Below, piece by piece: positions 220 through 49,448 of a DNA stretch of 64,000 bases. The stretch lies in the IMG/VR virus record IMGVR_UViG_3300020190_000054, positions 633-64,632 of that record; one strand, written 5' to 3'. Positions within the stretch are counted from its first letter, which is position 1. Each line of letters begins with the position of its first letter. Source of the DNA: a virus. Lineage: Duplodnaviria > Caudoviricetes. The position numbers and the translations under genes were made by a program. The notes beneath the pieces were generated by a model. The model was not told the origin of the DNA, ran no database searches, and was given only the letters and a program-made list of their open reading frames with translations.

Positions 220-2712
220 TTACCTTGCACGTGCGTATTTAAACGGGTTTTCAGCGAAGGCTGCGTAGATGTAAGTGTTACTACTGGCGTTATAGTCGCC
301 ATAGTTAATTCGGAGTTTGAATCCGTTAGAGAGAATATCAAAAGGATCGTTTGTGCTTTCGGCGATGGTTAAGTTGGCCCAAAGTCTTTTTTCGGTTGGG
401 TTATAGGGATCTCTGGATGTATCGCGGATTATCCAGCTCCATCCTCCAGCATTAGAGGAGTTTTTAATTAATAGCCACCTTGGTCTAAATCCTGTATAAA
501 TAAACACGCCATCCGTGCTGCCGTTACCGATGTAACTACCAAATGCAGAGTACCCAGCCACTGGGGCGAAGCAGTAGGCGATCATTGAGTCCCCAGATGC
601 GTTCGGCGTGAATACTGAAGCTGTTGGTGCGGCTACAACAGCATCTGCTTTTACATCTGTTGTATTCAAGCGCAAATAATCATATGAACCGTCTATAACC
701 GTTGTGCCCACAAGCCAGTCAGAAGTTGTATCACGTTTCTTTTCAATAATCAGTTTTGGTGCAACGCCAAGACCATGACCAACTGTGCCTGAAGGATTAG
801 AATCGTAACTAACAATTGAGAATCCTGCACTTGCGTTTGCCCGAACAGTAGAAGCAATAGTTCCGTCGCTATTTGTGGAATTAGCTGACGCTGAATTCCA
901 GGCCCAAGCAACGTAAGTGCTTGTGTTTAGATTGACATAATTACCACTATCTGTATTATCACCAAGGCTAAATCCGTCTGCATTAAACGAAGTTAATTGT
1001 TTGGTATATGTAACTTCTGCTGCTGTATTGTTTGTTGACAGTATTTTTGTGTTTCCTCTTACGGCATCCATTACTGCGTTAAAGTAACCAGATGTGCTGC
1101 TCCGGTTTTGGATCCACACTAAATCAGGTGAAAAATTTAATCCGGTAATATCTCTTGCACTTGCATTACCTGTATATAGTGCTATATCAAATTGAGTATT
1201 GCCTTTAACAATAGTAGGTTCTGGAAGGTTGGTGTCAACTAAAGCTTTAAACCCACTAGGCGCTGTGTATGCGAAGGGACGTTGACCAAAGTTGCAAGTA
1301 ATTGTTACGCCTGTTGAATAATGATATGTGGCTGGAACCATTGGGTTTGTTAGACCAGTCGCACTAGGATTTGATCCTGTTGCCGGATTTCCAGACGCAA
1401 ACCAAGTCCCATTTTTTCCAAACCAAATTCTGTTGTTATCAGCGTCAAATGCAACCATTAAAACGTCGCCAGAAGAAAGCGCGGTTCCGTAGGAACTAGA
1501 AGAGGCGTTTTGGCGCAATGTTGCGGCATCCATCCAACGCACTGTATCTGCTAATTCCCCTGGGACAGACGTGCTGGCAACACGCATAACACCAATGCCA
1601 CCGTTATTGCCGCCTACATTGCCGCCTCCGGTAAAAGTGTATTCCGCATACCATTTACCAGACGAAAGAGCAAAAGTAGAAGTCCAGCCACTATCACTGT
1701 TTGTAACAGTTTTATTTGAAACAAGGTTTCCGTCAGTAGATGCAAGTGTTCCAGTTCCATAAGACTGAAGTGGATTTAATGTGCAGTAATTCCCCCTTAC
1801 TTCTCCACCAACACCAGTATCAGTGCCATAAGAGGTAGGTGTATCTACCAGGGAATCATTACCGGCACCTGCTGTGACACTGAAATTATTAGGAGTCCAA
1901 TCGTTACTACCAACACGGTCTTTACCAAGCGTGGTGGAAGTAGTTCCAGAGTTATCAGAGAAATCTAAATAGAAACCATTGGTACCATAAGTACCTATGT
2001 AATTAATAGGAGTCCACAAGCCAGTGGTTTGATCCGTTGCTCCAAACGAAGAAGGTGTTAATGCCTGGCCGTCAACAAAGTGTGTTTCTGCAAGGTAGCC
2101 ATTTAAATGATAAAAAGCTGACGGAGAGTATCGTCCAATTGTATGCGCAGCTGCTTGATTTACACCTAAATCTGCATTTTGAGATGGATTTGTTCTTGTG
2201 CTAAATGCTGTAACTTGAGAGCCATTAACGTATAACCTTACTCTATTATCTGCAGTTGCTTGTGTTGTGTCTACTGTTAGTACTAAATGATACCAGGCAT
2301 TAGTATCTTTAAATACTTGTGATGTGACTAACCAAGTTGACGTGTATCCAACAATAGTTAGTGTTTCTGTGGGTGAAAAGTATACAGAAAATGCCCCAGC
2401 ATCGGTGCTAGCAGAATAAACGTCAAAAAGCATTTGTGATCCCACGCCAAGCTCAGATCTTTTTAACCATCCACTCCATGTCCAAGTTTTCCTATTGCCC
2501 GCACCACTTGGCGTCCTGCTTAAATACGCACTATCTGCTGAGTTAAATCTCAGACTTCTTGAGATTGTTACAGGTTCCGCTGGAGGAGTGGGCCACAGGT
2601 TATCTTTTTCTAAAGCAAACTGACTCCGCATGTTCCACATGCCGGAACGTACGGAGGAACTCCATGTAGTAGGAGTTGTGCCGAGATAACCACCTTCCCG
2701 CTTCTTACCCAT
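220..2712 (-). CDS. LamG/concanavalin-like and SPRY-domain virion (tail-fibre-associated) protein
   Basis: 830 aa; SLRFN..SAYLSRT, WTWSGWLKR and AWYHLVL (LamG-like); SSGKWYAE and GDVLMVAFDAD..IWFGKNGTW (SPRY-like); C-terminal GFSIVSY/HGLGVAP/GFRPRWLLIK repeats. Confidence 0.8.
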   Translation of the reverse strand: MGKKREGGYLGTTPTTWSSSVRSGMWNMRSQFALEKDNLWPTPPAEPVTISRSLRFNSADSAYLSRTPSGAGNRKTWTWSGWLKRSELGVGSQMLFDVYSASTDAGAFSVYFSPTETLTIVGYTSTWLVTSQVFKDTNAWYHLVLTVDTTQATADNRVRLYVNGSQVTAFSTRTNPSQNADLGVNQAAAHTIGRYSPSAFYHLNGYLAETHFVDGQALTPSSFGATDQTTGLWTPINYIGTYGTNGFYLDFSDNSGTTSTTLGKDRVGSNDWTPNNFSVTAGAGNDSLVDTPTSYGTDTGVGGEVRGNYCTLNPLQSYGTGTLASTDGNLVSNKTVTNSDSGWTSTFALSSGKWYAEYTFTGGGNVGGNNGGIGVMRVASTSVPGELADTVRWMDAATLRQNASSSSYGTALSSGDVLMVAFDADNNRIWFGKNGTWFASGNPATGSNPSATGLTNPMVPATYHYSTGVTITCNFGQRPFAYTAPSGFKALVDTNLPEPTIVKGNTQFDIALYTGNASARDITGLNFSPDLVWIQNRSSTSGYFNAVMDAVRGNTKILSTNNTAAEVTYTKQLTSFNADGFSLGDNTDSGNYVNLNTSTYVAWAWNSASANSTNSDGTIASTVRANASAGFSIVSYDSNPSGTVGHGLGVAPKLIIEKKRDTTSDWLVGTTVIDGSYDYLRLNTTDVKADAVVAAPTASVFTPNASGDSMIAYCFAPVAGYSAFGSYIGNGSTDGVFIYTGFRPRWLLIKNSSNAGGWSWIIRDTSRDPYNPTEKRLWANLTIAESTNDPFDILSNGFKLRINYGDYNASSNTYIYAAFAENPFKYARAR

Positions 2713-2746
2713 CGGAGACTCTTTCTATATTTATTTAGTCTATCAA

Positions 2747-3136
2747 TTAAGGCTGAATATCAAGCGCTGAAACGGTAAAAACAACACCAGAAGCAACCGA
2801 GGAACGTGCCCTTAATTTACTGCCGTAAGGAACGTTGGCTTTATTGACGATAAATTCCAGGGAGGAGTTGGCGGGTACCACAATGGTTTTACCCATTAAG
2901 AAACTCCCGGACTCAGTATCAACTGTACCCGTGGCAGTGCTAGTAGAGCCGGTCAGCGTGGTGTAAAGGCTTACGTTTACATCACCGGTGCTGGTGTTAG
3001 AAGCAAGCGCCGACAGCACAATGGAAACACCACTGGAGTTCGTTAAGGCACCGTCTTGGCCACTGGTGGGGTTATAAACATCAGCGATACCAGTGGTTGT
3101 TAACTGGGTACCTTTGAACTTAAAATACTCGGCCAT
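2747..3136 (-). CDS. small beta-rich virion protein of the tail-fibre cluster
   Basis: 129 aa ORF with IVVPANSSLE motif; genomic context. Confidence 0.55.
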   Translation of the reverse strand: MAEYFKFKGTQLTTTGIADVYNPTSGQDGALTNSSGVSIVLSALASNTSTGDVNVSLYTTLTGSTSTATGTVDTESGSFLMGKTIVVPANSSLEFIVNKANVPYGSKLRARSSVASGVVFTVSALDIQP

Positions 3137-3174
3137 TGCTAAGACTCTTTTCTACTGATTATAAGATCAAGAAA

Positions 3175-3774
3175 TTAACCAGCAAGGGCAATTACAAGCC
3201 CTAGGCTAACTCCTCCAGCGGTTGCTGCAGTTGTTTGCGTGGTGCCATCAGGGAACTTAAAGCCACCTGAGGTTGACTGAACAATACCTGACGTAACCAC
3301 ACCAGAGGCAAAGTTACCGCTGTTAAACAGGCTTAAGTTACCCCTGGTTGTAGCACCAGAGATTTGAGTAGTGAATACACCGGAAACAAAGTTGGCAGTC
3401 GTACCAGTTGTCGTTGTTCCCGTAAGAGTTGTGAAGTTCCCACCAAGGGCAGAAATATTAGTGAAGTTACCAGTATTACCAGTGACGGTGGCACCGGAAA
3501 TTTGAGTGGTAAATACTCCGGAAACAAAATTGGCAGTCGTACCGGTAACAGTAGTACCAGTAAGCGTTGTAAAGCTGCCTCCAATGCCTGCAACATTGGT
3601 GAAGTTACCAGTATTACCAGTTACTGTTGCGCCACTTACTTGGGAGGTAAATACGCCTGATGCTCCGGAAATCTGAGTAAAGCCATTTTGAACGGCTTGT
3701 GTAAAATCAAAAGTAGTATCACCGCTACCCGGATCGTAAATAAGGGTATTAACTTTTAAAGTGCCGTATGCCAT
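3175..3774 (-). CDS. short tail-fibre-like repeat protein
   Basis: 199 aa, G/T-rich; about 46-aa repeat GVFT.QISGATVTGNTGNFT; GFKFPDGTTQTTAA fibre motif. Confidence 0.7.
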   Translation of the reverse strand: MAYGTLKVNTLIYDPGSGDTTFDFTQAVQNGFTQISGASGVFTSQVSGATVTGNTGNFTNVAGIGGSFTTLTGTTVTGTTANFVSGVFTTQISGATVTGNTGNFTNISALGGNFTTLTGTTTTGTTANFVSGVFTTQISGATTRGNLSLFNSGNFASGVVTSGIVQSTSGGFKFPDGTTQTTAATAGGVSLGLVIALAG

Positions 3775-3794: not shown

Positions 3795-6428
3795 TTAATT
3801 CAAGATTCTCCAGACACTTCCGGAGGGTATTGTAACCGTAAAGCCGGATGCCACAGATGCTGTTTCAATAGAAGCAGCGTTGTAACCACTGGTAATAGTA
3901 TAGTTCTGGTCAATGATTAATTTACTTTCTAATACTGGTTTATCAATAACAATTCCACTACTGGTGCTGATAGCCCAAACTGTGCTTCCATTGCCAAGAG
4001 TTGTCAGTACGTAGCCTGAAAGCCCAACACTGTTTGGGAAAGAAAATTGACCAAAAGGTCGAACATCCCCTGCACCAGAAACAAACGTTGTTCCACCAGC
4101 AATAAAAGTAGAGCCAGAAACACGGCTGAACTGACCAGATGTAACAGTTAAGGTGTCACCAGTAATTAAGGCGCCGGAAAGTTGGGAGGTAAATACTCCG
4201 CTGATCCCAGTAATTTGAGTGAATTGGCCATTAATTCCGGTGATCGTAGTCCCCTGGATCGTATTACCGGTAATAGTTGTGCCTGAGATTTGGCTTGTGA
4301 ATACACCACTAATTCCAGTAATAGTTGTGTATTGACCGGTGTCTCCGGTAATTACGGCACCAGATAATTGACTCGTGAAAACACCAGAGCTGAAGTTGGC
4401 GTTTGTACCGGTAACGGTTGCGCCTGTGACGGTGGTGAATCCAGCGGTATTACCCGTTAATGTTCCAAATTGACCTGCATTTCCGGTAATTGTGGTACCA
4501 GAAATTTGTCCGGTGAAGACTCCACTAATGCCTGTGATTTGCGTAAATTGACCATTGATTCCAGTGAATGTGGTTCCCTGGATCGTATTGCCGGTAATCG
4601 TTGCACCGGAAATCTGGTTTGTGAATACACCGCTGGCAAAGTTAGCGTTGGTACCAGTGACAGTTGCACCGGTGACTGTTGTGAATCCAGCAGTATTACC
4701 AGTAAGAGTATTAAATTGCCCTGCATCGCCTGTGATTACAGCTCCGGAAATATTAGTGGTTCCAACTAAGTAAGTTCCAGTAATATTTGTGGCTTGGATG
4801 TTTGTACCGGTAATTGTGGTACCACTTAAAGTTCCAGTGACATTGACACCAGAACTAAAAAATCCAGATCCTTGAACAACTAAATCACCGGTAACAGTTA
4901 GTGTTCCGGAAACCGTTTGTGAATACGCAGTTAAATTTTGAAATGTACCGGAGGTGAAATGAGCAATATTACCGGTAACCGTTGCACCAGAAATTTGAGT
5001 GGTGAAAACACCCGAAGAAAAGTTTGCAGTAGTACCAGTGATTGTGGCGCCGGTCAGCGTAGTGAAACCACCGCCTATTCCGGTAATACTTGTGAATTGA
5101 CCGTTGGTACCGGTAATTGTTGTTCCGGTAATAGTCGTAAAGCCCGCTGTATTACCAGTCAGTGTGGTGAATTGGCCAAGATTACCGGTGACCGTGGCAC
5201 CAGACAAAGTATTTGTAAAGGTTCCGCTACTGAAGTTAGCGTTAGTGCCGGTGACTGTGGCCCCTGTAAGCGTTGTAAACCCACCGCCAATACCAGTGAT
5301 GGACGTAAACTGACCCGTTGTACCAGTAATGGTTACACCAGAAATACTGCCAGAGTTTACTGTTAAGCCTGAGGCAATTGTTGCTGTTTGACCAACGGTG
5401 AGTGTTCCGCTAGTAAGAATATTGCCAGTGACGGTAATGTTTTGTTTGACAACACCGGTTTCAAACGTTGCCGTAATAGCATTTAATGTTGTGAAATTTC
5501 CAGTATTTCCAGTGATTGTGGCGCCGGAGATCTGTGAGTTAAAAACTCCGCTATTACCTGTAAGAGTTGTAAAATTAGCAGTGTTTCCGGTAATCGAAGC
5601 ACCGGAAATTTGACTTGTGAAAACACCTGATCCGCCAGTGATTGTGGTGAATTGTGCGTTAGTGCCAGTAACTGTTACGCCACTGACTGTTCCACTGATA
5701 TTGACACCAGAACTAAAGAAGCCAGAGCCCAGTACACGCAGATTTCCGGTAACCGCAAGGTCTCCGCTAATGTTCTGAGAAGCAACGTTTAACGTTTGGA
5801 ACGTACCACTGGTGGCATTGATGTTATTGCCAGTGATTGTTGCGCCAGAAATCTGAGTGGTGAATACGCCACTGCTTGCATTGACCGTCGTACCTGTAAT
5901 GGTTACGCCGCTGACGGTATTAGCAGTAACAATGTTTGAAAAATTACCGGTCAGTGTATTGACCGTCGTACCGGTAATTGTTGTACCAGAGAGCTGTGAT
6001 GTGAATACACCACTGCTAGCGTTAACAACATTTCCGGTAACGGTAGTGAATTGACCGGAGGTACCAGCAACAAGATTTCCTTGGATCGTATTACCGGTAA
6101 TTGTGTTGCCGGTCAGCGTTCCCGTAATACTCGCGCCGTTTTGTACGACTAAGCTGGCGAGGGTTGTGGTCCCAGTGACCGTAATGCTATTTAGTGTTGT
6201 GCTTCCAGAGACAGTAATGTTGTTGGCAAAAATTACCGCACCGCTAACGGTACCGCCTGTAAGAGGTAAATAATAAAGATCTAAATATGCACGAACGCCG
6301 GAAACAGTTAGTTTTTTATTTTTAATTGTGGGGTCGACTTCTGCGACCTGTACAACGGTAAATAGGTCACCGTCCGCCAGATTGATCCCGGCGATTTCCT
6401 GTAGATCAGAGATCCTACGGTTTGCCAC
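3795..6428 (-). CDS. long tail-fibre-like protein with G/T/S/N-rich repeats (probable beta-helix)
   Basis: 877 aa; N-terminal RRISDL...DLF..V attachment-type motif; many SGVFTSQISGATITG repeats; C-terminal NYTITSGYNA...VTIPSGSVWRIL. Confidence 0.8.
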   Translation of the reverse strand: MANRRISDLQEIAGINLADGDLFTVVQVAEVDPTIKNKKLTVSGVRAYLDLYYLPLTGGTVSGAVIFANNITVSGSTTLNSITVTGTTTLASLVVQNGASITGTLTGNTITGNTIQGNLVAGTSGQFTTVTGNVVNASSGVFTSQLSGTTITGTTVNTLTGNFSNIVTANTVSGVTITGTTVNASSGVFTTQISGATITGNNINATSGTFQTLNVASQNISGDLAVTGNLRVLGSGFFSSGVNISGTVSGVTVTGTNAQFTTITGGSGVFTSQISGASITGNTANFTTLTGNSGVFNSQISGATITGNTGNFTTLNAITATFETGVVKQNITVTGNILTSGTLTVGQTATIASGLTVNSGSISGVTITGTTGQFTSITGIGGGFTTLTGATVTGTNANFSSGTFTNTLSGATVTGNLGQFTTLTGNTAGFTTITGTTITGTNGQFTSITGIGGGFTTLTGATITGTTANFSSGVFTTQISGATVTGNIAHFTSGTFQNLTAYSQTVSGTLTVTGDLVVQGSGFFSSGVNVTGTLSGTTITGTNIQATNITGTYLVGTTNISGAVITGDAGQFNTLTGNTAGFTTVTGATVTGTNANFASGVFTNQISGATITGNTIQGTTFTGINGQFTQITGISGVFTGQISGTTITGNAGQFGTLTGNTAGFTTVTGATVTGTNANFSSGVFTSQLSGAVITGDTGQYTTITGISGVFTSQISGTTITGNTIQGTTITGINGQFTQITGISGVFTSQLSGALITGDTLTVTSGQFSRVSGSTFIAGGTTFVSGAGDVRPFGQFSFPNSVGLSGYVLTTLGNGSTVWAISTSSGIVIDKPVLESKLIIDQNYTITSGYNAASIETASVASGFTVTIPSGSVWRILN

Positions 6429-6478
6429 CTATTAAATCACATAGTCTCGTTATATGAATTATACTTTCACCAACTCCG

Positions 6479-6829
6479 TTATTTGAGCTTGATTTCAATG
6501 CGCGGAAGCGTGTTCATCAAAAAGGTTCCGGCCATTTGAACACCAAAGACAACCCCACAGGAAACGACCAGTACAAGCAAAAGCTCTGCCACCGTCAAAT
6601 TTCGACGCACATAAACGACTTGTTGCTGCGGCGGAACAAATGAAGGCACCGGAGGTTGCGATGCAAAAGCTTGTTGAATAGCTAACTCACGCGCTTTGGC
6701 CTTCATTTCTTCCAGCTGTTCAGGCGTGATGTTTCCAGGGATACTCACCGATCCTTGAACAGAAGCAAAAGGAGGAAGCTGGCTGTTGGGGATTTGTTCA
6801 GACATTGGAAAGGCAAAATCTTTTCCCAC
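6479..6829 (-). CDS. hypothetical membrane protein (true start may be about 6806)
   Basis: C-terminal hydrophobic helix LLLVLVVSCGVVFGV. Confidence 0.6.
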   Translation of the reverse strand: MGKDFAFPMSEQIPNSQLPPFASVQGSVSIPGNITPEQLEEMKAKARELAIQQAFASQPPVPSFVPPQQQVVYVRRNLTVAELLLVLVVSCGVVFGVQMAGTFLMNTLPRIEIKLK

Positions 6830-7289: not shown

Positions 7290-7782
7290 CAATTTTTCAA
7301 TAGATGCGGTCACTGTTGAGAACTGTTCTCAATTACTGCCCAACTCTTTGTATCTGCAGTTGGTGGATTTTCTTCCGCCCAGCGGCTCATTTGACGATGG
7401 CTGCCTCCAAAGATATTTGGAAAACCTTAAAAAGTACGAAGAAGAAGACGCCAATTCCGGAATGACTTTGGCAAATAGATTGCGGCTGGCATTCAAAGAT
7501 ATGCAACCTGACACAATCTGTGGTAAGTTTCCCCAAGCAGAACTGCCGCTTAAAAGACGGTTGCGCTGTGTAGCAGAGTATCTCATCCGTTCTGGTGAGT
7601 TTGATAAGCTGCGCGATGACAATGGCAAGCTAATGAAAAAACGTGGAGTTTTAGGAAAGCTTGTCGTTATTTACAAACCGCTCCCGAAACTTTTAGAATC
7701 GCTTCAAAAGCAAGAGTTGATTAAAAATGAATCGAAGGGAAAAGCTGCTTCTTCAACTGTTGGGCAAGGATCTAGAGGATGA
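7270..7782 (+). CDS. hypothetical protein (possible winged helix)
   Basis: 170 aa ORF overlapping its neighbours in an operon-like arrangement. Confidence 0.6.
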   Translation: MLITRFDNFSIDAVTVENCSQLLPNSLYLQLVDFLPPSGSFDDGCLQRYLENLKKYEEEDANSGMTLANRLRLAFKDMQPDTICGKFPQAELPLKRRLRCVAEYLIRSGEFDKLRDDNGKLMKKRGVLGKLVVIYKPLPKLLESLQKQELIKNESKGKAASSTVGQGSRG

Positions 7783-8116
7783 AACTAAAGCAAAAATGCT
7801 GGAAACCACAGTTGCTCTTATCTTGGGCGACATGGGTAGCATGTATACAAAATTCTGGGAAGCCGAAGGACCGGGAATCTTGTGCTTCCAGCCAGCAAAT
7901 AAAGAAAGGCAGGTTTTTTTCCTGACACTTAAAGAGTTGCACTCGGCACAAGAACAGTGCGAACGAGAGAATGATGGAGATATGGCAGAAACTTTTCGAC
8001 GCATTCTTCAGGCTGCCCAAAAAATTAACCCACAAGAAAAAGCTGGTTACATCATTAATGATGAAGAGGGCATTCGCTATTTGGAAATAGACTATAACGT
8101 CGTTGCAGGTGACTGA
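7727..8116 (+). CDS. hypothetical protein
   Basis: 129 aa; TGATG coupling to the next gene. Confidence 0.6.
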   Translation: MNRREKLLLQLLGKDLEDETKAKMLETTVALILGDMGSMYTKFWEAEGPGILCFQPANKERQVFFLTLKELHSAQEQCERENDGDMAETFRRILQAAQKINPQEKAGYIINDEEGIRYLEIDYNVVAGD

Positions 8117-8700
8117 TGGGCGGTAAATTTCGTCAAAAAGTTGAAGATCTTGAGCTTATTACAAGCTTCGATTTAATTGGGGCTGCTCATGAACTACTGG
8201 GCAATATTGACTTAGATCCAGCCAGTTCAAAAGTTGCCAACTCCTATGTGCAAGCTGACAATTTTTTTACGCCTCAAGACGACGGGTTGAATAGCCAGCT
8301 TTGGTTTGGCAAAGTTTATTTGTTTCCTCCAAGTGGATCTTACTTTTGGGAAGAAAAGAATCAAAGATGGAAAATGACACGAGCAAGTTCAGTGTCTTTG
8401 ATCTCGGGGCATGCCTTGTGGTTTAGAAAACTTTACAAAGCCTGGATGAATGGAGAAGTTGAGCAAGGTCTTTATTTTAGTAACTGTCCAGACATGGTCA
8501 GATACGATCAAACAATCTTTGATTTCCCCATGTGTTTTCTCAGGACTGCTCCTGTTTTGATAAAAAACACCAGTGAAGGTATTGGGAGACATCGAACGTC
8601 TACCAGTTTTCTAGTTTATTTGCAACCGAAAGATCGCTCAGGTGAGGCAACTCAGAAATTCATTGACATTTATTCAGATAGGGGACGAGTACTCGCTTGA
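8116..8700 (+). CDS. phage DNA N6-adenine methyltransferase-like protein with a variant catalytic motif
   Basis: IDLDPASS, FFT..DDGL..W.GKVYLFPP (NPPY expected). Confidence 0.65.
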   Translation: MGGKFRQKVEDLELITSFDLIGAAHELLGNIDLDPASSKVANSYVQADNFFTPQDDGLNSQLWFGKVYLFPPSGSYFWEEKNQRWKMTRASSVSLISGHALWFRKLYKAWMNGEVEQGLYFSNCPDMVRYDQTIFDFPMCFLRTAPVLIKNTSEGIGRHRTSTSFLVYLQPKDRSGEATQKFIDIYSDRGRVLA

Positions 8701-23640: not shown

Positions 23641-25625
23641 TCAGACGCTACCGTCATCAGACACAAAGCTGTAGGCGGTGGTCACGAAGTCCTTGTTCAG
23701 GATCTCGAAGCCAGCGTACAGTTGCCAGATGAGGATGATGAAACGGCTGAAGTCGTCGTTGTTGTTGATCAGCACCTGAGCGTTCGGACCGCCGATACCA
23801 ACGCCAATGGCTTGAGGACCGAAGAAGAAACCTTGGGCAACTTCTTGGTTGGCATAAGGGGCAGCGCCGGTGAAAGAAGCCGAAACGTTCTTGGTCGGGA
23901 AGTTGGTCGACTCGAAGAACTTAACGCCTTCAAACTGAACACCAGTCGGCATGACGGGTTCACCAGCCAGGAAATAAGCCTGACCAGCTTGGGGACCCAT
24001 GTAGAAGCTGGCGTTGTTAGGCATCATGGGGTTGCCCATGTACATGCCTTGGCCAGGATTGCCAGCGTAACGAGCAATTTCACGGAAGTCGGGATCACGA
24101 CGCAGGTGCATCATGAAGGTGGGATCGCAGATGCAACGATACAGACCATCAGCGAAGGTAGGAACGTTACGCTTGCGCAGATCCTTGACAACAGTCAGAA
24201 GGTCGGTACGCACCGAGAACTGCTGCACATCAGCGGTGTACTCAGCGGAGCTGTAAGTAACTTGGCTGGAAGAGTTCTTGGCTTTGTTACCAGGGAAGTA
24301 GTAACCACCTTGGGTGCTGGAAGCTTGACCATTGGCATCAGCTTTGGCCAGTTCGTCAATGAAGACGCGGTCACGCCAACGGCGATAGTCATCAAGCAGC
24401 GTCAGGCTACCGATCGACTGGTGGAACATATTCAGGTTGCCGGTGTCCAGCAGCAGACGCTGGGCGGTAACCAGGGTTTCACGAGCAATCTTGAAGGTGC
24501 TGGGCTGGGTCGGATCGCCCGGATCAGCAGGGCCGGTGTACTCTTTCAGCACAACAAGCACCTTCTCTTTGGTGATGTTGCGGCTGTTAGCGGTACCGAT
24601 GGTTTGGTCAGCCACGCGCTCACGGCTGTCCTTGGTACCAGGAGTACCCCAGAACTTATAGCGGTCGAGCTGAACGGTTTGACCAGGCTGACGAGTGAAG
24701 TCGTGAACAACCACGGGCTCCACAGCCATCTCGGCAATATATGCAGGGTGCGGACGATAGAGTTCCGCGCCTAAAATCTTTGGAAAATCGTTCTCCTGGT
24801 CCCTAATTTCTTAGAGGGGTGGACTATCTCTTCATCCCTGTGGGATGCCGGACGCTAAATCTGGTATTACGTAACAAGATCGTGTTACCCCCAGTAGTCT
24901 CTGCACCTTCCAATCACGGGCTTGATTGGCTTGGCTCAGGATTACCCTCGTCTTTACGTTAGGGCTTCCCTGAATTCATCCGGTTTGCACTCATCAATTA
25001 CTCGATGAGGTGACAACGTTGAGCGTTCAGTTGAGGTATGATTTGGAAACCTGTTCATAAACAACATGGATCCAAAATTAGTTCCTGGATTTGGTAACCT
25101 TTACTTAACAGAAAGAGGAGAAGCTTTTGAAAAACAACTTGATGAAAACAACCAAGAATATTTTCAAAAAATTGCAATTAGCTCAACCAGTACTTATGAC
25201 CGTATTTCTGTTCTTGTAAATGGAAGAAGAAAGAGGTTTCATCTTCACGTCTTGATGGCTATTGCTTTTTTAGGGTTAGATCTTCGTTCACATGGAACAA
25301 ATAATTTTTCCCTTCAAGTAGATCACAAGGACAACAACAAAAGAAATAACTGCGTCGATAACCTTGAAATCGTAACCAAACAAGAAAATCTTACAAGAGC
25401 TTGGGAAACCGGTTGTTACAAGAACAATGGTTTTGCTAGTAAAGGCAGACCGAAAAAAACTTTAAGAAAATTTTCTTCGGAAGACGTGAAGCAAATTAAA
25501 ACTTTAAAAGAAGCAGGACTTTCTTATCGAAAGATTGCGGAAAAGTTTAACTGCAATCACGGTGCTATTTACCAAATCCTAAAAGGAAATACCTACCAGG
25601 ATCTGAACTAGCTATCAATAAACAC
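23641..25625 (-). CDS. major capsid protein, spliced: join(25614..25625, 23641..24792), 387 aa
   Basis: GGAGG SD at 25636-25640; GTG TTT ATT GAT exon joins in frame to AAC GAT TTT CCA, giving MFID-NDFPKILGAELYRPHP...; body has G.TVQ..RY, L.EY, HP-like DPTF..LRRD, G...GVKFFES and D.F.R....W, typical of N4-gp56-like capsids. Confidence 0.85.
24793..25613 (-). mobile_element. group I self-splicing intron (821 nt) in the major capsid gene
   Basis: Conserved core on minus strand: P AAUUCAGGGAA, Q AAUCCUGAGC, R GUGCAGAGACUA, S AAGAGAUAGUCC; P3 CCGGAUG/CGUCCGG; P7 GACUA/UAGUC; exon ends in U and intron ends in G; P1 UGAU^AGC/GUUGUCA; P10 CGUU/AACG. Confidence 0.93.
25066..25611 (+). CDS. intron-encoded HNH homing endonuclease with C-terminal HTH, antisense to the intron
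   Basis: HVLMAIAFLG...QVDHKDNNKRNNCVDNLEIVT..EN, then GLSYRKIAEKFNCNHGAIYQI; AT-rich relative to flanks; TATGAT at 25037-25042. Confidence 0.92.
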   Translation: MDPKLVPGFGNLYLTERGEAFEKQLDENNQEYFQKIAISSTSTYDRISVLVNGRRKRFHLHVLMAIAFLGLDLRSHGTNNFSLQVDHKDNNKRNNCVDNLEIVTKQENLTRAWETGCYKNNGFASKGRPKKTLRKFSSEDVKQIKTLKEAGLSYRKIAEKFNCNHGAIYQILKGNTYQDLN

Positions 25626-25720
25626 CTTGGTTTATCCTCCAGTGTTAATTTTGTTATCGGGTGAGAAGACTTGGCTTTTGCCTCATCTACTACAAATTGT
25701 AGCAGTCAGTAATTTATTTA

Positions 25721-26264: not shown

Positions 26265-27230
26265 TTACTCCATCACAAACAGTTTGTTTGCCAGCGTTTG
26301 AGGCTGAGCTTGGTTCATGAGCCGCCAGGCGTTCTGGGGATCACGAGCCATTTGCTCGCTGAAATTAGCCCAGAAGTTTTCAGGTTGCTGAGGAGCATCA
26401 GCAGCCGGAGGGGCAGGGAACTGATTCATGGCAGTAGGTTGCACAGCTTCGGTGCGATAACCAGGACGCTCAAGTTCCACTTCGTTTTCGTACACGGGGT
26501 ACGGACCTTCAGGACCAAAGAACTTCAGGGTGTAATCACTGAGAACGTCAGGATTAGTCAGGATTTCGTTGTACGCCAGGTTCTCTTGATGCTCATTAAC
26601 AGCAAACTGGGCGTAACCCTGAATGGTATCAGCGGCGCGGTTTCCCCACGCGACGGCGCTGTCCAGCATTGCCTCCAGATTCAGGGCGTAGTTGTTCAGA
26701 AGGGCGGGTGCCTCGATTCCGAACGCGTCCATTACTTGGCGGCTGTCCTGGCTCATTCCCAACTGGTCCGCGAGCGCCACCAAGGAGGGAGCTGACGAGG
26801 TTTGGGAAGAGTTGGGCGATAAGGCCGGGTTGGCTTGCCAGGTCTGCGGAGCCGATTGTTGCGTAACTTGGGCGCTGGCTTGTTGGCCGTAGTTCGCCGG
26901 GGAATACTGAGTCGTCGGCTGCGAGGGTTGACCCTGGAACGGGGATTGGACTGGTGCGCTCAGCAGATTCACCACCTTGTTGAACGCCGATTCCCACGGA
27001 TTCGAGATAGTTTCCGAGGTCGTCGGGGATTGGGGGGCGTACTGAGTAGGGGCTGATTGGTAATTGGGGGCCGCCTGCGGCACCGCTTGGGGGTAACTGG
27101 TACCCACCTGATACGGCACCGGAGCCGGGGAGGCTGCCTGTTGCGGAGCTGCCACCACGTAGCTGCTCGGAGCGACGGCTGCGGGTGCTGGGCTCGTCTG
27201 TGGGATCGATTGGACGGTAGCGTCCTGCAT
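26265..27230 (-). CDS. putative head scaffolding protein
   Basis: AAGGAG SD upstream; P/Q/A/S-rich N-half and helical acidic C-half; lies between portal and MCP. Confidence 0.7.
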   Translation of the reverse strand: MQDATVQSIPQTSPAPAAVAPSSYVVAAPQQAASPAPVPYQVGTSYPQAVPQAAPNYQSAPTQYAPQSPTTSETISNPWESAFNKVVNLLSAPVQSPFQGQPSQPTTQYSPANYGQQASAQVTQQSAPQTWQANPALSPNSSQTSSAPSLVALADQLGMSQDSRQVMDAFGIEAPALLNNYALNLEAMLDSAVAWGNRAADTIQGYAQFAVNEHQENLAYNEILTNPDVLSDYTLKFFGPEGPYPVYENEVELERPGYRTEAVQPTAMNQFPAPPAADAPQQPENFWANFSEQMARDPQNAWRLMNQAQPQTLANKLFVME

Positions 27231-28977
27231 AACTCATCTCCTTTTGTAAGGCCTCTAATGTTCGATACAGATATGGGGTTAAATCCAGTCTTGGATCCGC
27301 AGCCATCGGAAGATCCGGTGATTGCGGGTGAGGAGTCTGCATCATGCCCCCCACTAAACGAGCGAAAGAAGAATATGCATTCTGCAATTCGCCCACCATC
27401 CTGAACGGGAACCCAGATAACATCTCGGCCCGCTCCTCATCCGTCTTGGACGGGAAGAGGTATTTCAGTGCCTCAATGCTATCAACACCTAATTCCTGAA
27501 GGTTGCGCACCACAATGGAGTTGTTCAGGATGTCCTGTGTTGAATCCTCGTATACGGGACCCAACCAACGCCATTGAACAGTAATGTCACCATCGGGAAT
27601 TAGCCCCAGCACCCCTGGAGGAATCTGCTGGGTTTTAACGCATGCCATCATTAATTGCTTTACTTGATCTTCAAAAGCAGTCAACGCATCTGCATAAAGC
27701 GCCAACTCGTTTTCATCAGCATTTTCGTCCGGCTCAACAGGTTTTTCAAGACCTGCTGCAGCTGCCAATGTGGTGCGGAAAATCTGCTCTTCTTGATAAA
27801 TAATTAATTCAAGACAGCGACAAATGCCATACGTATACACAGCATTTGCTTTTTTCTTTGATGTTGCCGAAACACGTCCAAATAAGGACTTGTACTCTGT
27901 TGCCGTTACACCAGCGGAAATAGACAGTTCATCAACACCGCCCAATGCCGTACGAATTTCTTCGCGGTATTGACGAGCAAATGAATTTTGATCACCAGTA
28001 ATAGCATCTGGAACAATGTAACCAACTCGATCGTTTGGTTCCAGGTTTGCAATGACTCGTGGAACACGGATTTGACCGTCAATGCCACGAGCTAAAGGAT
28101 CAGATTTAAACCGAGACTGGCTTAAGCTGCCCATCCCAGTAAAGCCTGAATTAGCTGCAATGGAAGGGCGTTGAACAACGGTGTCACCACCAGCTTCCAT
28201 CAGGTCAGTCTTAGGCCTGGAAGAAAGAAGAGTAGGATTACCAAAGAACTGAACGTTCTTACGCATGGTGCGAACCATTTCGTCATGCGTAACAATGTGA
28301 TTGGCGAGTGCATCAAACTCACCAAATCCTTCAGTTGAAAAGCCTTTGGGGTTATTAAAGATTTCAACACAAGGGATAAACCCTAATGTGTTACGAAATG
28401 TTTTTGTTTTACCAGGGGTTGCATAGCTGGGTTGATCGAATGAAATTTCACCTTCCGCATGCGTTTCTTCAATCGTTTTTCTTTTGATCGAAAGTTTGAT
28501 ATAACGTCGCGCACCTTGATTAATCGTGGCTGGACCTGTCAATTTGGTTGCCGCAATATCTTGATCAAACCCAATACCACGACGAACTTTATAGCTGTAG
28601 ATAATTACGACTTCGTCCAGTTCTCCATCGATGTTGTAATACGTCCGATACTCATGTTTGCGGAAGTAATACATTCTGTAATTACTGTCCGTGGGACGGA
28701 TATAAAAAAGTCCTTGTCCGTCACAAAGAAAATAATCCCAGACTGAATCTAAGCGTGTATCAATTTGATTGTACTTAAGAACGCGAGTGACAAAGTCCTT
28801 GCGTTGATTCCCAAAATTATCTTGCGCTGGAAAAAACTCAACCCCTTGGCGAATGCCAAAAAGTTTCATTTGTGCTAAATGAGACGCAATGACCCCAGTA
28901 TCGACCATTGCGCTACCGTCTCGTTCCAGGTAGGCGTCAATGATTTCTTTTAAGCGAGATTTTGCGTCAGCAGCCAT
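26629..28977 (-). CDS. portal protein, with a possible long C-terminal extension overlapping the scaffold gene
   Basis: About 580-aa core with NTLGFIPCVEIFN, G.GEF, TATEYKSL and I.VQW...P; located between terminase and scaffold. Confidence 0.8.
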   Translation of the reverse strand: MAADAKSRLKEIIDAYLERDGSAMVDTGVIASHLAQMKLFGIRQGVEFFPAQDNFGNQRKDFVTRVLKYNQIDTRLDSVWDYFLCDGQGLFYIRPTDSNYRMYYFRKHEYRTYYNIDGELDEVVIIYSYKVRRGIGFDQDIAATKLTGPATINQGARRYIKLSIKRKTIEETHAEGEISFDQPSYATPGKTKTFRNTLGFIPCVEIFNNPKGFSTEGFGEFDALANHIVTHDEMVRTMRKNVQFFGNPTLLSSRPKTDLMEAGGDTVVQRPSIAANSGFTGMGSLSQSRFKSDPLARGIDGQIRVPRVIANLEPNDRVGYIVPDAITGDQNSFARQYREEIRTALGGVDELSISAGVTATEYKSLFGRVSATSKKKANAVYTYGICRCLELIIYQEEQIFRTTLAAAAGLEKPVEPDENADENELALYADALTAFEDQVKQLMMACVKTQQIPPGVLGLIPDGDITVQWRWLGPVYEDSTQDILNNSIVVRNLQELGVDSIEALKYLFPSKTDEERAEMLSGFPFRMVGELQNAYSSFARLVGGMMQTPHPQSPDLPMAADPRLDLTPYLYRTLEALQKEMSYAGRYRPIDPTDEPSTRSRRSEQLRGGSSATGSLPGSGAVSGGYQLPPSGAAGGPQLPISPYSVRPPIPDDLGNYLESVGIGVQQGGESAERTSPIPVPGSTLAADDSVFPGELRPTSQRPSYATIGSADLASQPGLIAQLFPNLVSSLLGGARGPVGNEPGQPPSNGRVRNRGTRPSEQLRPESGGNAGQRRRVGKPRR

Positions 28978-49166: not shown

Positions 49167-49382
49167 ATGGAATACACTGACGATCAACTCCTTGCCATGG
49201 CACTTGGCAATATCGGTGATTTCATCCATGACAATTCACCACACTATGTGTTGATCGAAGAAGATTTTCGCAACGATGAGGACTACGACACTTGGGATTA
49301 TGGCACTGAGCCATTGCCCCAAGATCACACTTGGCGTCATACATCTATTGATGTTTGTGTAAGTCCAAGTGCGCCTGAGTAG
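49167..49382 (+). CDS. small acidic hypothetical protein overlapping the tRNA 5' end
   Basis: 71 aa ORF. Confidence 0.5.
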   Translation: MEYTDDQLLAMALGNIGDFIHDNSPHYVLIEEDFRNDEDYDTWDYGTEPLPQDHTWRHTSIDVCVSPSAPE

Positions 49383-49448
49383 CCCAGCGGAAGAGGCAAA
49401 CGACTTAAAATCGTTCCAGCGTGGGTTCGAATCCCACCTCAGGTACCA
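49373..49448 (+). tRNA. trnL: tRNA-Leu(UAA), intron-less, short variable loop, encoded CCA
   Basis: Acceptor GCCTGAG/CTCAGGT-A-CCA; anticodon arm AACGA-CT-TAA-AA-TCGTT; T arm GTGGG-TTCGAAT-CCCAC. Confidence 0.92.

Follow-up and report, generated by a model that had tools for sequence, protein, structure and literature searches.

A probably mobile group I intron with an antisense HNH endonuclease gene interrupts the major capsid gene of an S-EIVl-like freshwater cyanophage after codon 4

How does a virus make its major capsid protein from a gene whose reading frame stops after five codons? This question is raised by the minus strand of the window analyzed here, a 64,000-nucleotide (nt) stretch of viral DNA (bases 633-64632 of the 64,632-base IMG/VR virus record IMGVR_UViG_3300020190_000054, with an estimated completeness of 82%). 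We consider it very likely that the gene, from an S-EIVl-like freshwater cyanophage, is interrupted after codon 4 by a mobile, self-splicing group I intron, a selfish element that carries an HNH homing endonuclease. Five lines of evidence carry this answer: the ribozyme fold, an exact junction, the presence of the insert in some relatives and its absence from others, selection on both the endonuclease and the codons that follow the intron, and the fold of the capsid protein.

Because Pfam and sequence searches of the PDB returned no match to the protein, and NCBIfam gave only a sub-threshold N4-type capsid match (TIGR04387, 19.6 bits against a cut-off of 60), its identification depended on PHROGs and a fold search. 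The protein matched the major head protein family phrog_1357 (E 2.6e-17), and its AlphaFold2 model, built from a 36-row alignment (pLDDT 79.8, pTM 0.77), had 308 Foldseek matches in the PDB at E <= 0.001, the best being cyanophage P-SCSP1u (8i4l, E 6e-13). Nearly all of the best listed matches were phage capsids, including those of Pan3, GP4, N4 and HK97; the remaining ones were a gene-transfer-agent capsid, an archaeal virus capsid and an encapsulin. By its modelled structure, the interrupted gene is an HK97-fold major capsid gene. Two genes upstream, the open reading frame (ORF) at 26629-28977 matches a virion structural protein family (E 3.4e-300).

The layout of the locus is given in Table 1. 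Unspliced, the capsid frame reads MFIDS*; excision of 821 nt preserves the frame, and the joined exons form a 387-codon ORF that starts MFIDNDFPK. Exon 2 opens with AAC GAT TTT CCA AAG at 24792, its frame is closed upstream by a TAA (24813-24811), and no start codon lies between this TAA and the AAC. Plain ORF calling gives only a 362-codon ORF from an internal ATG at 24729 (MAVEP...). The Shine-Dalgarno sequence, start codon and 5' strand of P1 all fall within 27 nt. The Shine-Dalgarno sequence is kept as GGAGG or GGAGA in all listed relatives, intronless and intron-bearing alike, and two relatives (L064 and L073) begin exon 1 with ATG instead of GTG. A CTAG palindrome (25611-25608) is common to the TAG of the capsid frame and the TAG stop of the endonuclease gene on the other strand (25609-25611). 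By sequence comparison the intron boundaries are ambiguous by one base, as an A opens both the intron and exon 2; we placed them as an earlier note on this DNA had done, because by rule a U precedes the splice site and a G ends the intron. That note, made from the letters of the window, had every coordinate right, including the Shine-Dalgarno sequence, exon 1, the AGC TAG, the guide, the terminal G24793 and the AAC at 24792. Its short unspliced product agrees with the minus-strand sequence, as does its 387-residue joined product (exon 2 has 383 codons and a frame closed upstream), and its pairings are correct too; its statement that exon 1 is invisible to ORF callers agrees with the call that starts at MAVEP.

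Table 1 Features of the interrupted capsid gene and of related introns. Positions are those of the window unless a contig is named; the helices of the core follow the Rfam alignment and reading by eye.
Feature	Position	Strand	Remark
Shine-Dalgarno GGAGG of capsid gene	25636-25640	minus	10 nt upstream of GTG start
Exon 1, GTG TTT ATT GAT (M F I D)	25614-25625	minus	12 coding nt; U25614 is the 5' splice-site U
Group I intron, A25613 to terminal G24793	24793-25613	minus	821 nt
In-frame TAG two codons into intron	25608-25610	minus	AGC TAG 25613-25608
Exon 2 of major capsid gene, N D F P K ...	23641-24792	minus	383 codons; stop 23643-23641
Homing-endonuclease gene, 181 codons	25066-25611	plus	antisense to intron and capsid gene; in terminal loop of P1 extension
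P1 5' strand UGAU/AGC	25611-25617	minus	across 5' splice site
Internal guide sequence GUUGUCA	25017-25011	minus
CGUU	25018-25015	minus	able to pair with first four exon 2 bases (P10, AACG)
P1 extension	GUUCAG 25608-25603 with CUGAAC 25030-25025	minus
Ribozyme core, P2 to P9	24800-25043	minus
P2	25009-24990	minus	GUAA loop 25001-24998
P3	24983-24977 with 24854-24848	minus
P4	24973-24968 with 24941-24936	minus
P5	24965-24944	minus
P6	24929-24910	minus
P7	24899-24895 with 24826-24822	minus
P7.1/P7.2	24894-24861	minus
P8	24847-24833	minus
P9	24816-24801	minus
Contig L095, intron region	7353-7588	minus	divergent lineage
Contig L095, HNH_3/NUMOD4 ORF	7711-8238	plus	divergent lineage
Contig L090, tRNA-array intron	6402-6618
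Contig L115, tRNA-array intron	6333-6624
Contig L145, tRNA-array intron	1455-1699
Contig L152, tRNA-array intron	2572-2810
Contig L170, tRNA-array intron	234-740
Contig L180, tRNA-array intron	10-258

Relatives that lack the insert reveal where it sits. The isolate Synechococcus phage S-EIVl is the sole INPHARED phage record that matches exon 2 (82.6% identity), and the match starts at most 2 bases from the predicted 3' splice site; the other 33 INPHARED matches cover just 49-199 nt of the ribozyme core. In S-EIVl, GGAGGATAAACACAA is followed by GTG TTC ATT GAT ACC GAC TTT CCT AAG ... in one 383-codon open frame, and this uninterrupted GTG ORF reads MFIDTDFPKILGAELYRPHPAYICEMAVEP. Scanning IMG/VR with the protein gave at least 595 relatives, the best 80 of which were used as an unbiased contig set. 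No intron was present in 61 of these 80 contigs, where GTG/ATG TTY MTY GAY is joined directly to AMC GAY TTY CC, and the other 19 have the intron end ...CCAGGAG before AAC at exactly the same point. Twelve of the 19 introns are complete at 824-827 nt, two are complete at 276 nt and five are cut by the end of the contig; the 12 full-length copies are 83-88% identical. These intronless alleles prove the exact splice junction at the level of sequence.

Protein homologues agree with this junction. A HMMER search of 1.84 billion representative proteins yielded 189 relatives at E <= 0.001. Residues 5-387 of the closest representative capsid (387 residues, 89% identity) align with residues 1-383 of the query, homologues at 37-52% identity start MFNETDFP, MFIDEIFP, MTFIDNQFP and MAWNDIDFP, and distant homologues begin 4-7 residues before the DFP motif. 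No homologue in the capsid alignment starts at MAVEP, a start that the earlier note had named as refuting its reading, and the uninterrupted start that the earlier note had proposed to look for in homologous capsid proteins is seen in the intronless alleles.

The S-EIVl GenBank record (L001, KJ410740.1) carries no annotation of the 383-codon capsid ORF at 2487-3638, which has a GTG start. What it annotates there, as hypothetical proteins, is an antisense shadow ORF (2412-3173) together with a 3' fragment (3168-3638). Variation is also seen at the two codons that flank the insertion site. Some intronless alleles (L026, L047, L050 and L053) have GAC instead of GAT at codon 4, which places a C at position -1 and would thus break the U.G wobble, and L047 is almost identical in its upstream flank to the intron-bearing L037. 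Codon 5 encodes Asn in all 53 distinct intron-bearing alleles and Thr (ACC) in 9 of 47 distinct intronless ones. Such codon-4 GAC and codon-5 ACC alleles may resist homing or splicing.

The insert folds as a group I ribozyme. Rfam model RF00028 matches 25043-24800 on the minus strand over its full length (model positions 1-253) with 94.2 bits against a gathering score of 50 (E 5.6e-23), the covariance-model check that had been proposed for this intron, and no other intron match was found by Rfam in the window or in the whole 64,632-base record. Other copies score similarly (92 bits for a form without the endonuclease gene; 90.5 and 83.9 bits for L095 and L093 of a divergent lineage described below). 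The seven base pairs of P1 can be read straight from the sequence: U25617-A25011, G25616-C25012, A25615-U25013, U25614.G25014, A25613-U25015, G25612.U25016 and C25611-G25017. Among them, U25614.G25014 is the wobble at the 5' splice site that had been predicted, and the predicted P2 with its GUAA loop, the extra stem (P7.1/P7.2), P8 and P9 are all present. We take P7.1/P7.2 to be the mark of subgroup IA, and because this stem is present the intron looks like a member of that subgroup. All 19 intron-bearing loci of the 80-contig set end in ...GGAG, and copies in other sets likewise end in G (...GGCG, ...ACCG or ...GCTG). Compared with the other long copies (n = 33), the window has a median identity of 95.5% in the core, 85.7% in exon 2 and 82.8% in the rest of the intron, i.e., the endonuclease part.

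Covariation was assessed in 15 sequences: nine introns of the window's lineage that lack the homing-endonuclease gene (HEG-less introns), five introns of the divergent lineage, and the window core. Standard pairs fill 99.0% of 600 cells, compared with 27-43% when the partners are slid by 1-3 columns. Changes on both sides occur in 11 of 40 pairs, a count reached in 0 of 500 shuffles, and the compensatory changes are spread over P3 (two pairs), P4/P5 (three), P6 (three) and P7.2 (three), with P7 and P7.1 invariant across the set. P8 and P9 are absent from this count because MAFFT misaligned these indel-rich stems. Both differ compensatorily between lineages (CAUCCC/GGGAUG versus CAACAAG/CUUGUUG in P8; CUCUAA/UUAGGG versus CCAAAA/UUUUGG and others in P9). 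Exon position -4 covaries with the guide, being U-A in the window and C-G in the divergent lineage. Eight of 49 distinct core sequences were missed by the regular expression used and were dropped from the tables of stem variants; in L092, L112, L148 and L195, which fall outside the regular expression, the outer G.U pair of P5 is replaced by A and C, a change on both sides that is an isosteric exchange.

Selection on the capsid codons that follow the intron bears on whether it splices. Across the 53 distinct intron-bearing alleles, codons 5-25 (N5-E25) vary in DNA at 21 of 21 positions and in amino acid at 4 of 21, and the latter figure is 3 of 21 among the 47 distinct intronless alleles. Codons that change almost solely synonymously are translated, and since these have no start codon of their own they must be joined to exon 1, i.e., spliced. 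We thus infer that the intron splices in vivo, and consider it highly likely that expression of the capsid gene depends on group I splicing. The peptides NDFPKILGAELYRPHPAYIAE, (M)FIDNDFPK or NDFPKILGAELYR in virions would mark the spliced capsid rather than a MAVEP start.

The earlier note was right about the ribozyme elements of the intron and silent on the 181-codon plus-strand ORF at 25066-25611, which makes up about two thirds of it. This ORF matches Pfam HNH_3 (PF13392, 32.3 bits against a cut-off of 24.8) and the HNH endonuclease family phrog_59 (E 3e-27), and an HTH_7 match falls below threshold (21.5 bits against 23.8). Residues 43-118, including the DH..N..N core, match PDB entry 1u3e, annotated as 'HNH homing endonuclease' (E 2.1e-5). 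We take 1u3e to be I-HmuI, the HNH nicking endonuclease of the SPO1 DNA polymerase intron; the likeness is confined to the catalytic core, and the C-terminal DNA-binding part differs. In SPO1, the intron ORF is in sense orientation. All 42 distinct long introns retain an intact copy of the ORF, with a median ratio of nonsynonymous to synonymous substitution rates (dN/dS) of 0.10 over 587 pairs of 35 ungapped coding sequences, and by this comparison of coding sequences the gene is under purifying selection. A protein scan revealed that the Shine-Dalgarno sequence, exon 1 and the 5' splice site adjoin the stop of the ORF in 79 of 80 loci (the best 80 of 122 close relatives), which ties the endonuclease to this intron. 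Apart from a shadow ORF within the capsid gene, it is the sole plus-strand ORF of at least 170 codons from about 10.9 to 41.2 kb, and as a lone plus-strand gene in a minus-strand block of ~30 kb it needs a transcript of its own. A terminator scan found nothing near the gene. The activity, target and homing of the enzyme are what we infer from these sequences, and the intron would be present at the capsid site because of this gene.

The distribution of the intron among relatives fits such mobility. On a tree of exon 2 (81 rows, with the first 75 nt next to the insertion site left out), intron state changes at least 13 times, 11 of them forced by well-supported branches (shuffled mean 17.9). Some sister rows separated by ~0.01 substitutions per site have different intron states (L042/L045 and L060/L062). 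This scatter is what homing plus loss predicts.

Shorter forms of the intron point to loss of the endonuclease gene. HEG-less introns of 271-281 nt were found at 11 loci (nine distinct sequences) and still contain pieces of the ORF from either end: ...AGCTAGTTCAGATCCTGGTAGG... persists in L154 and L118, and ...CCTCAACTGAAC in L154 as well. By their remnants, they look like deletions of the endonuclease gene. A search of IMG/VR with a 20-base word from the core returned at least 115 further stretches, many of which are the same intron at the same capsid site. Others belong to a divergent lineage, in which ATG TGG ATC GAT and AAT GAT TTT CC are separated by 220-227 nt (L093, L095, L096, L099, L100 and L146).

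This divergent-lineage intron is HEG-less, lacks P2 and occupies the same codon-4 site in diverged members of the capsid family. In five of these loci (L095, L096, L099, L100 and L146), the strand opposite the capsid gene carries an HNH_3/NUMOD4 ORF that stands free of the intron, ~100 nt before the capsid gene begins; the one in L100 matches NUMOD4 alone and may be decayed. The free-standing HNH ORFs share 32-41% identity with the window's enzyme over 42-93 residues, which does not establish them as its closest relatives. In L093 (1675-2968, minus strand), ORFs upstream of the capsid gene match LAGLIDADG_2 and not HNH; they form two overlapping 243-codon stop-to-stop frames, possibly a frameshifted gene. 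The 5' end of the capsid gene thus seems to attract endonucleases of different families. Introns with the same core word (Rfam 62-90 bits) also occur in or beside the tRNA arrays of viral contigs that are unrelated and mostly much larger, and further ones lie in other protein-coding genes. This makes the capsid intron part of a broad phage intron family.

Taken as a mechanism, these observations suggest the following. A late minus-strand transcript would carry the Shine-Dalgarno sequence and GUG-UUU-AUU-GAU, the intron, and then AAC GAU with the remainder of the gene. The guide (25017-25011) would pair with UGAU/AGC to form P1, with the U.G wobble at the splice site; an external guanosine would then cut after U25614, the terminal G24793 would be bound, and the exons would be joined into the 387-codon capsid ORF. 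Unspliced RNA would yield MFIDS only, with the TAG stopping ribosomes short of the ribozyme. The endonuclease, an I-HmuI-like HNH enzyme, would be made from its own plus-strand transcript. When relatives co-infect, it most likely nicks or cuts their intronless alleles of the capsid gene at GAT/AAC, and repair would copy the intron in, i.e., homing. Loss of the endonuclease gene would give rise to the 271-281-nt introns.

Several observations weigh against this reading. Among RNA data, four of 24 listed runs (X1, X3, X5 and X6, from four studies) were examined, all as contigs, and no public run held more than 13% of the sampled words. RNA-library contigs in X1, X5 and X6 join 24791 to 25613, skipping the 821 nt. 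Their likeness to the window is ~88-95%, and in DNA the intronless phages outnumber intron-bearing ones three to one; because of this excess, the 5-12% differences and possible DNA in the libraries, we did not count these joints as evidence of splicing. Exon-joining contigs are indistinguishable from transcripts of intronless relatives or library DNA, and splicing was not directly seen. Run X5 holds a HEG-less intron form, in which 25036 is joined to 25592 across 7 intervening letters, and also a contig that spans the 3' splice site (24775-24870), and these intron contigs could be precursor RNA or DNA. None of the four runs shows more than near-zero depth over the endonuclease region, from which nothing can be concluded. 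The fold of the 5' region is also less than clear-cut: in a thermodynamic fold of the region from Shine-Dalgarno sequence to guide of a HEG-less copy, P1 was not recovered, and the minimum free energy (-18.9 kcal/mol, z = -0.47) was no better than that of shuffles. P10, proposed earlier as AACG/CGUU, can form in the window's lineage and is not conserved in the divergent lineage with its same-site intron. For the endonuclease, the C-terminal HTH_38 match (26.5 bits) lies just under the Pfam cut-off of 27, and a sigma-70-type scan found no promoter-like site near the gene (one site in 3 kb, elsewhere, versus 2.4 by chance). Finally, recombination within the capsid gene could blur the exon 2 tree, on which gain and loss are not separable.

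The intron could instead be a regulator. The earlier note had raised the idea that splicing gates virion assembly, and the anatomy of the locus permits it: the 5' splice site falls 12 nt downstream of the start codon, within the footprint of an initiating ribosome, and in the long form ~600 nt are transcribed between the splice site and the guide. P1 formation would then have to compete with ribosome loading, and how efficiently the intron splices would determine when or how much capsid is made, with GTP, Mg2+, light, energy state or the antisense endonuclease transcript as possible modulators. An engineered analogue seems to exist in SIBR-Cas (PMC8565351), and a natural c-di-GMP group I ribozyme of C. 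difficile is described as rebuilding a ribosome-binding site and start codon (PMC3984707). Against this, the same capsid protein is made without the intron in 61 of 80 close relatives, and nearly identical phages can have or lack the intron. Its homing-endonuclease gene is under selection, it has no sensor or aptamer-like additions, and HEG-less forms, where the guide is close behind the splice site, coexist with long forms. Such a population pattern is the signature of a selfish element and not of a conserved regulator, and we regard regulation of this kind as quite unlikely. A related proposal starts from the position of the 5' strand of P1, which lies within the initiating ribosome's footprint, so that initiation and splice-site recognition would be mutually exclusive on each precursor mRNA; capsid output would be gated kinetically, possibly with an added effect of the antisense endonuclease transcript, and the divergent lineage would be a natural before-and-after series. 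This, too, strikes us as unlikely. If true, the divergent lineage, with its free-standing antisense endonuclease and HEG-less intron, would show how an endonuclease gene enters an intron. Our preferred reading of the intron is that of a selfish, near-neutral element rather than a regulator.

Alternatively, the insert might be dead, with a shorter, 362-residue capsid made from the ATG at 24729 (MAVEP...). An ORF caller gives exactly this ORF, and gene-splitting endonuclease insertions that do not splice are known, as in the Aeh1 nrdA/mobE case (PMC7344957). Yet the 53 distinct intron-bearing alleles show coding selection on codons 5-25, which precede that ATG, no part of the locus is as conserved as the ribozyme core, which also covaries, no aligned homologue starts at MAVEP, and no Shine-Dalgarno-like motif lies at a usable distance upstream of ATG 24729. 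A non-splicing insertion is therefore very improbable. Mis-assembly, conceivable for a metagenome-assembled virus record, is the least credible source of the 821-nt insert and can be set aside almost entirely, given that the insert recurs at the same base in 12 complete and five contig-cut copies among 80 contigs from different datasets, and that 42 distinct long-intron sequences each have matching exon flanks.

Two other features of the window were noted in passing. A mechanically called 321-codon ORF (26265-27230, minus strand) overlaps the 3' end of the 782-codon virion structural gene (26629-28977) by ~600 nt in another frame, and the true start of the gene downstream of 26629-28977 is probably a later ATG. 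A tRNA gene at 49373-49445 (plus strand, 58.8 bits) is the sole other Rfam match in the window.

T4 td, nrdB and nrdD are nucleotide-metabolism genes whose introns have long 5' exons and sense-strand ORFs in other loops. Theirs are phage group I introns in protein-coding genes, and an in-frame stop just inside the intron is a common device, read as keeping ribosomes out of the ribozyme (PMC3984707). On that account, the T4 introns resemble that of the window in having such a stop. Another known system, collaborative (trans) homing, has cyanophage psbA/F-CphI as an example. In this process, an ORF-less intron is served by a free-standing endonuclease aimed at the insertion site (PMC3984707). 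The divergent lineage, with its HEG-less codon-4 intron and nearby free-standing endonuclease ORF, resembles this arrangement as described there, and the window differs from it in that the endonuclease gene lies within the intron.

Capsid genes, too, are a described home. The earlier note placed most phage group I introns in DNA-metabolism, terminase, lysin or psbA genes, a list to which capsid genes must be added on the strength of mycobacteriophage LittleE and the lactococcal phage Tuc2009, whose capsid intron is cited in the LittleE report (PMC3706429). The LittleE capsid gene has an 819-bp group I intron with a bottom-strand endonuclease ORF that splices, as found by reverse transcription PCR and N-terminal protein sequencing, and the tail gene of BAKA has a related HEG-less intron of ~265 bp (PMC3706429). 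LittleE and the window share a tailed-phage capsid gene, introns of nearly equal length (819 versus 821), an antisense endonuclease ORF, a U that ends exon 1 and a G that ends the intron, absence of the intron from close relatives, and a HEG-less relative. They differ in host phylum, in their unrelated capsid sequences and in the endonuclease, which is LAGLIDADG-like in LittleE and HNH in the window; the LittleE intron lies deeper in the gene, past the prohead-processing site, whereas that of the window follows codon 4 and has its endonuclease gene filling the P1 loop. A cyanophage intron of subgroup IA2 that carries an HNH gene is also on record, in a DNA polymerase gene and not a capsid gene (PMC3428280). 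Our searches of the available literature found no report of an intron in a cyanophage capsid gene or an S-EIVl-like phage; the group I intron database cited in PMC12880540 may already include the introns described here. What is unusual here is the position and layout: a 12-base exon 1, a P1 5' strand in the initiation region and an antisense endonuclease gene in the P1 loop. A capsid intron with a bottom-strand endonuclease is already known from LittleE, and how such introns work is unchanged by this locus.

For this widespread freshwater cyanophage lineage, one consequence is practical. Gene callers miss a coding exon 1 of 12 nt, so genomes with the intron receive a truncated capsid ORF (MAVEP...), and surveys are affected because capsid genes are used as markers. 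The locus also brings together hundreds of natural alleles of a single site: some have no intron, some a long one with the endonuclease gene and some a HEG-less one with remnants of it, and in a sister lineage the endonuclease stands free. It is thus good material for studying the homing cycle and collaborative homing. With its splice site inside the initiation region, it makes interference between ribosome and ribozyme directly testable in a very highly expressed gene.

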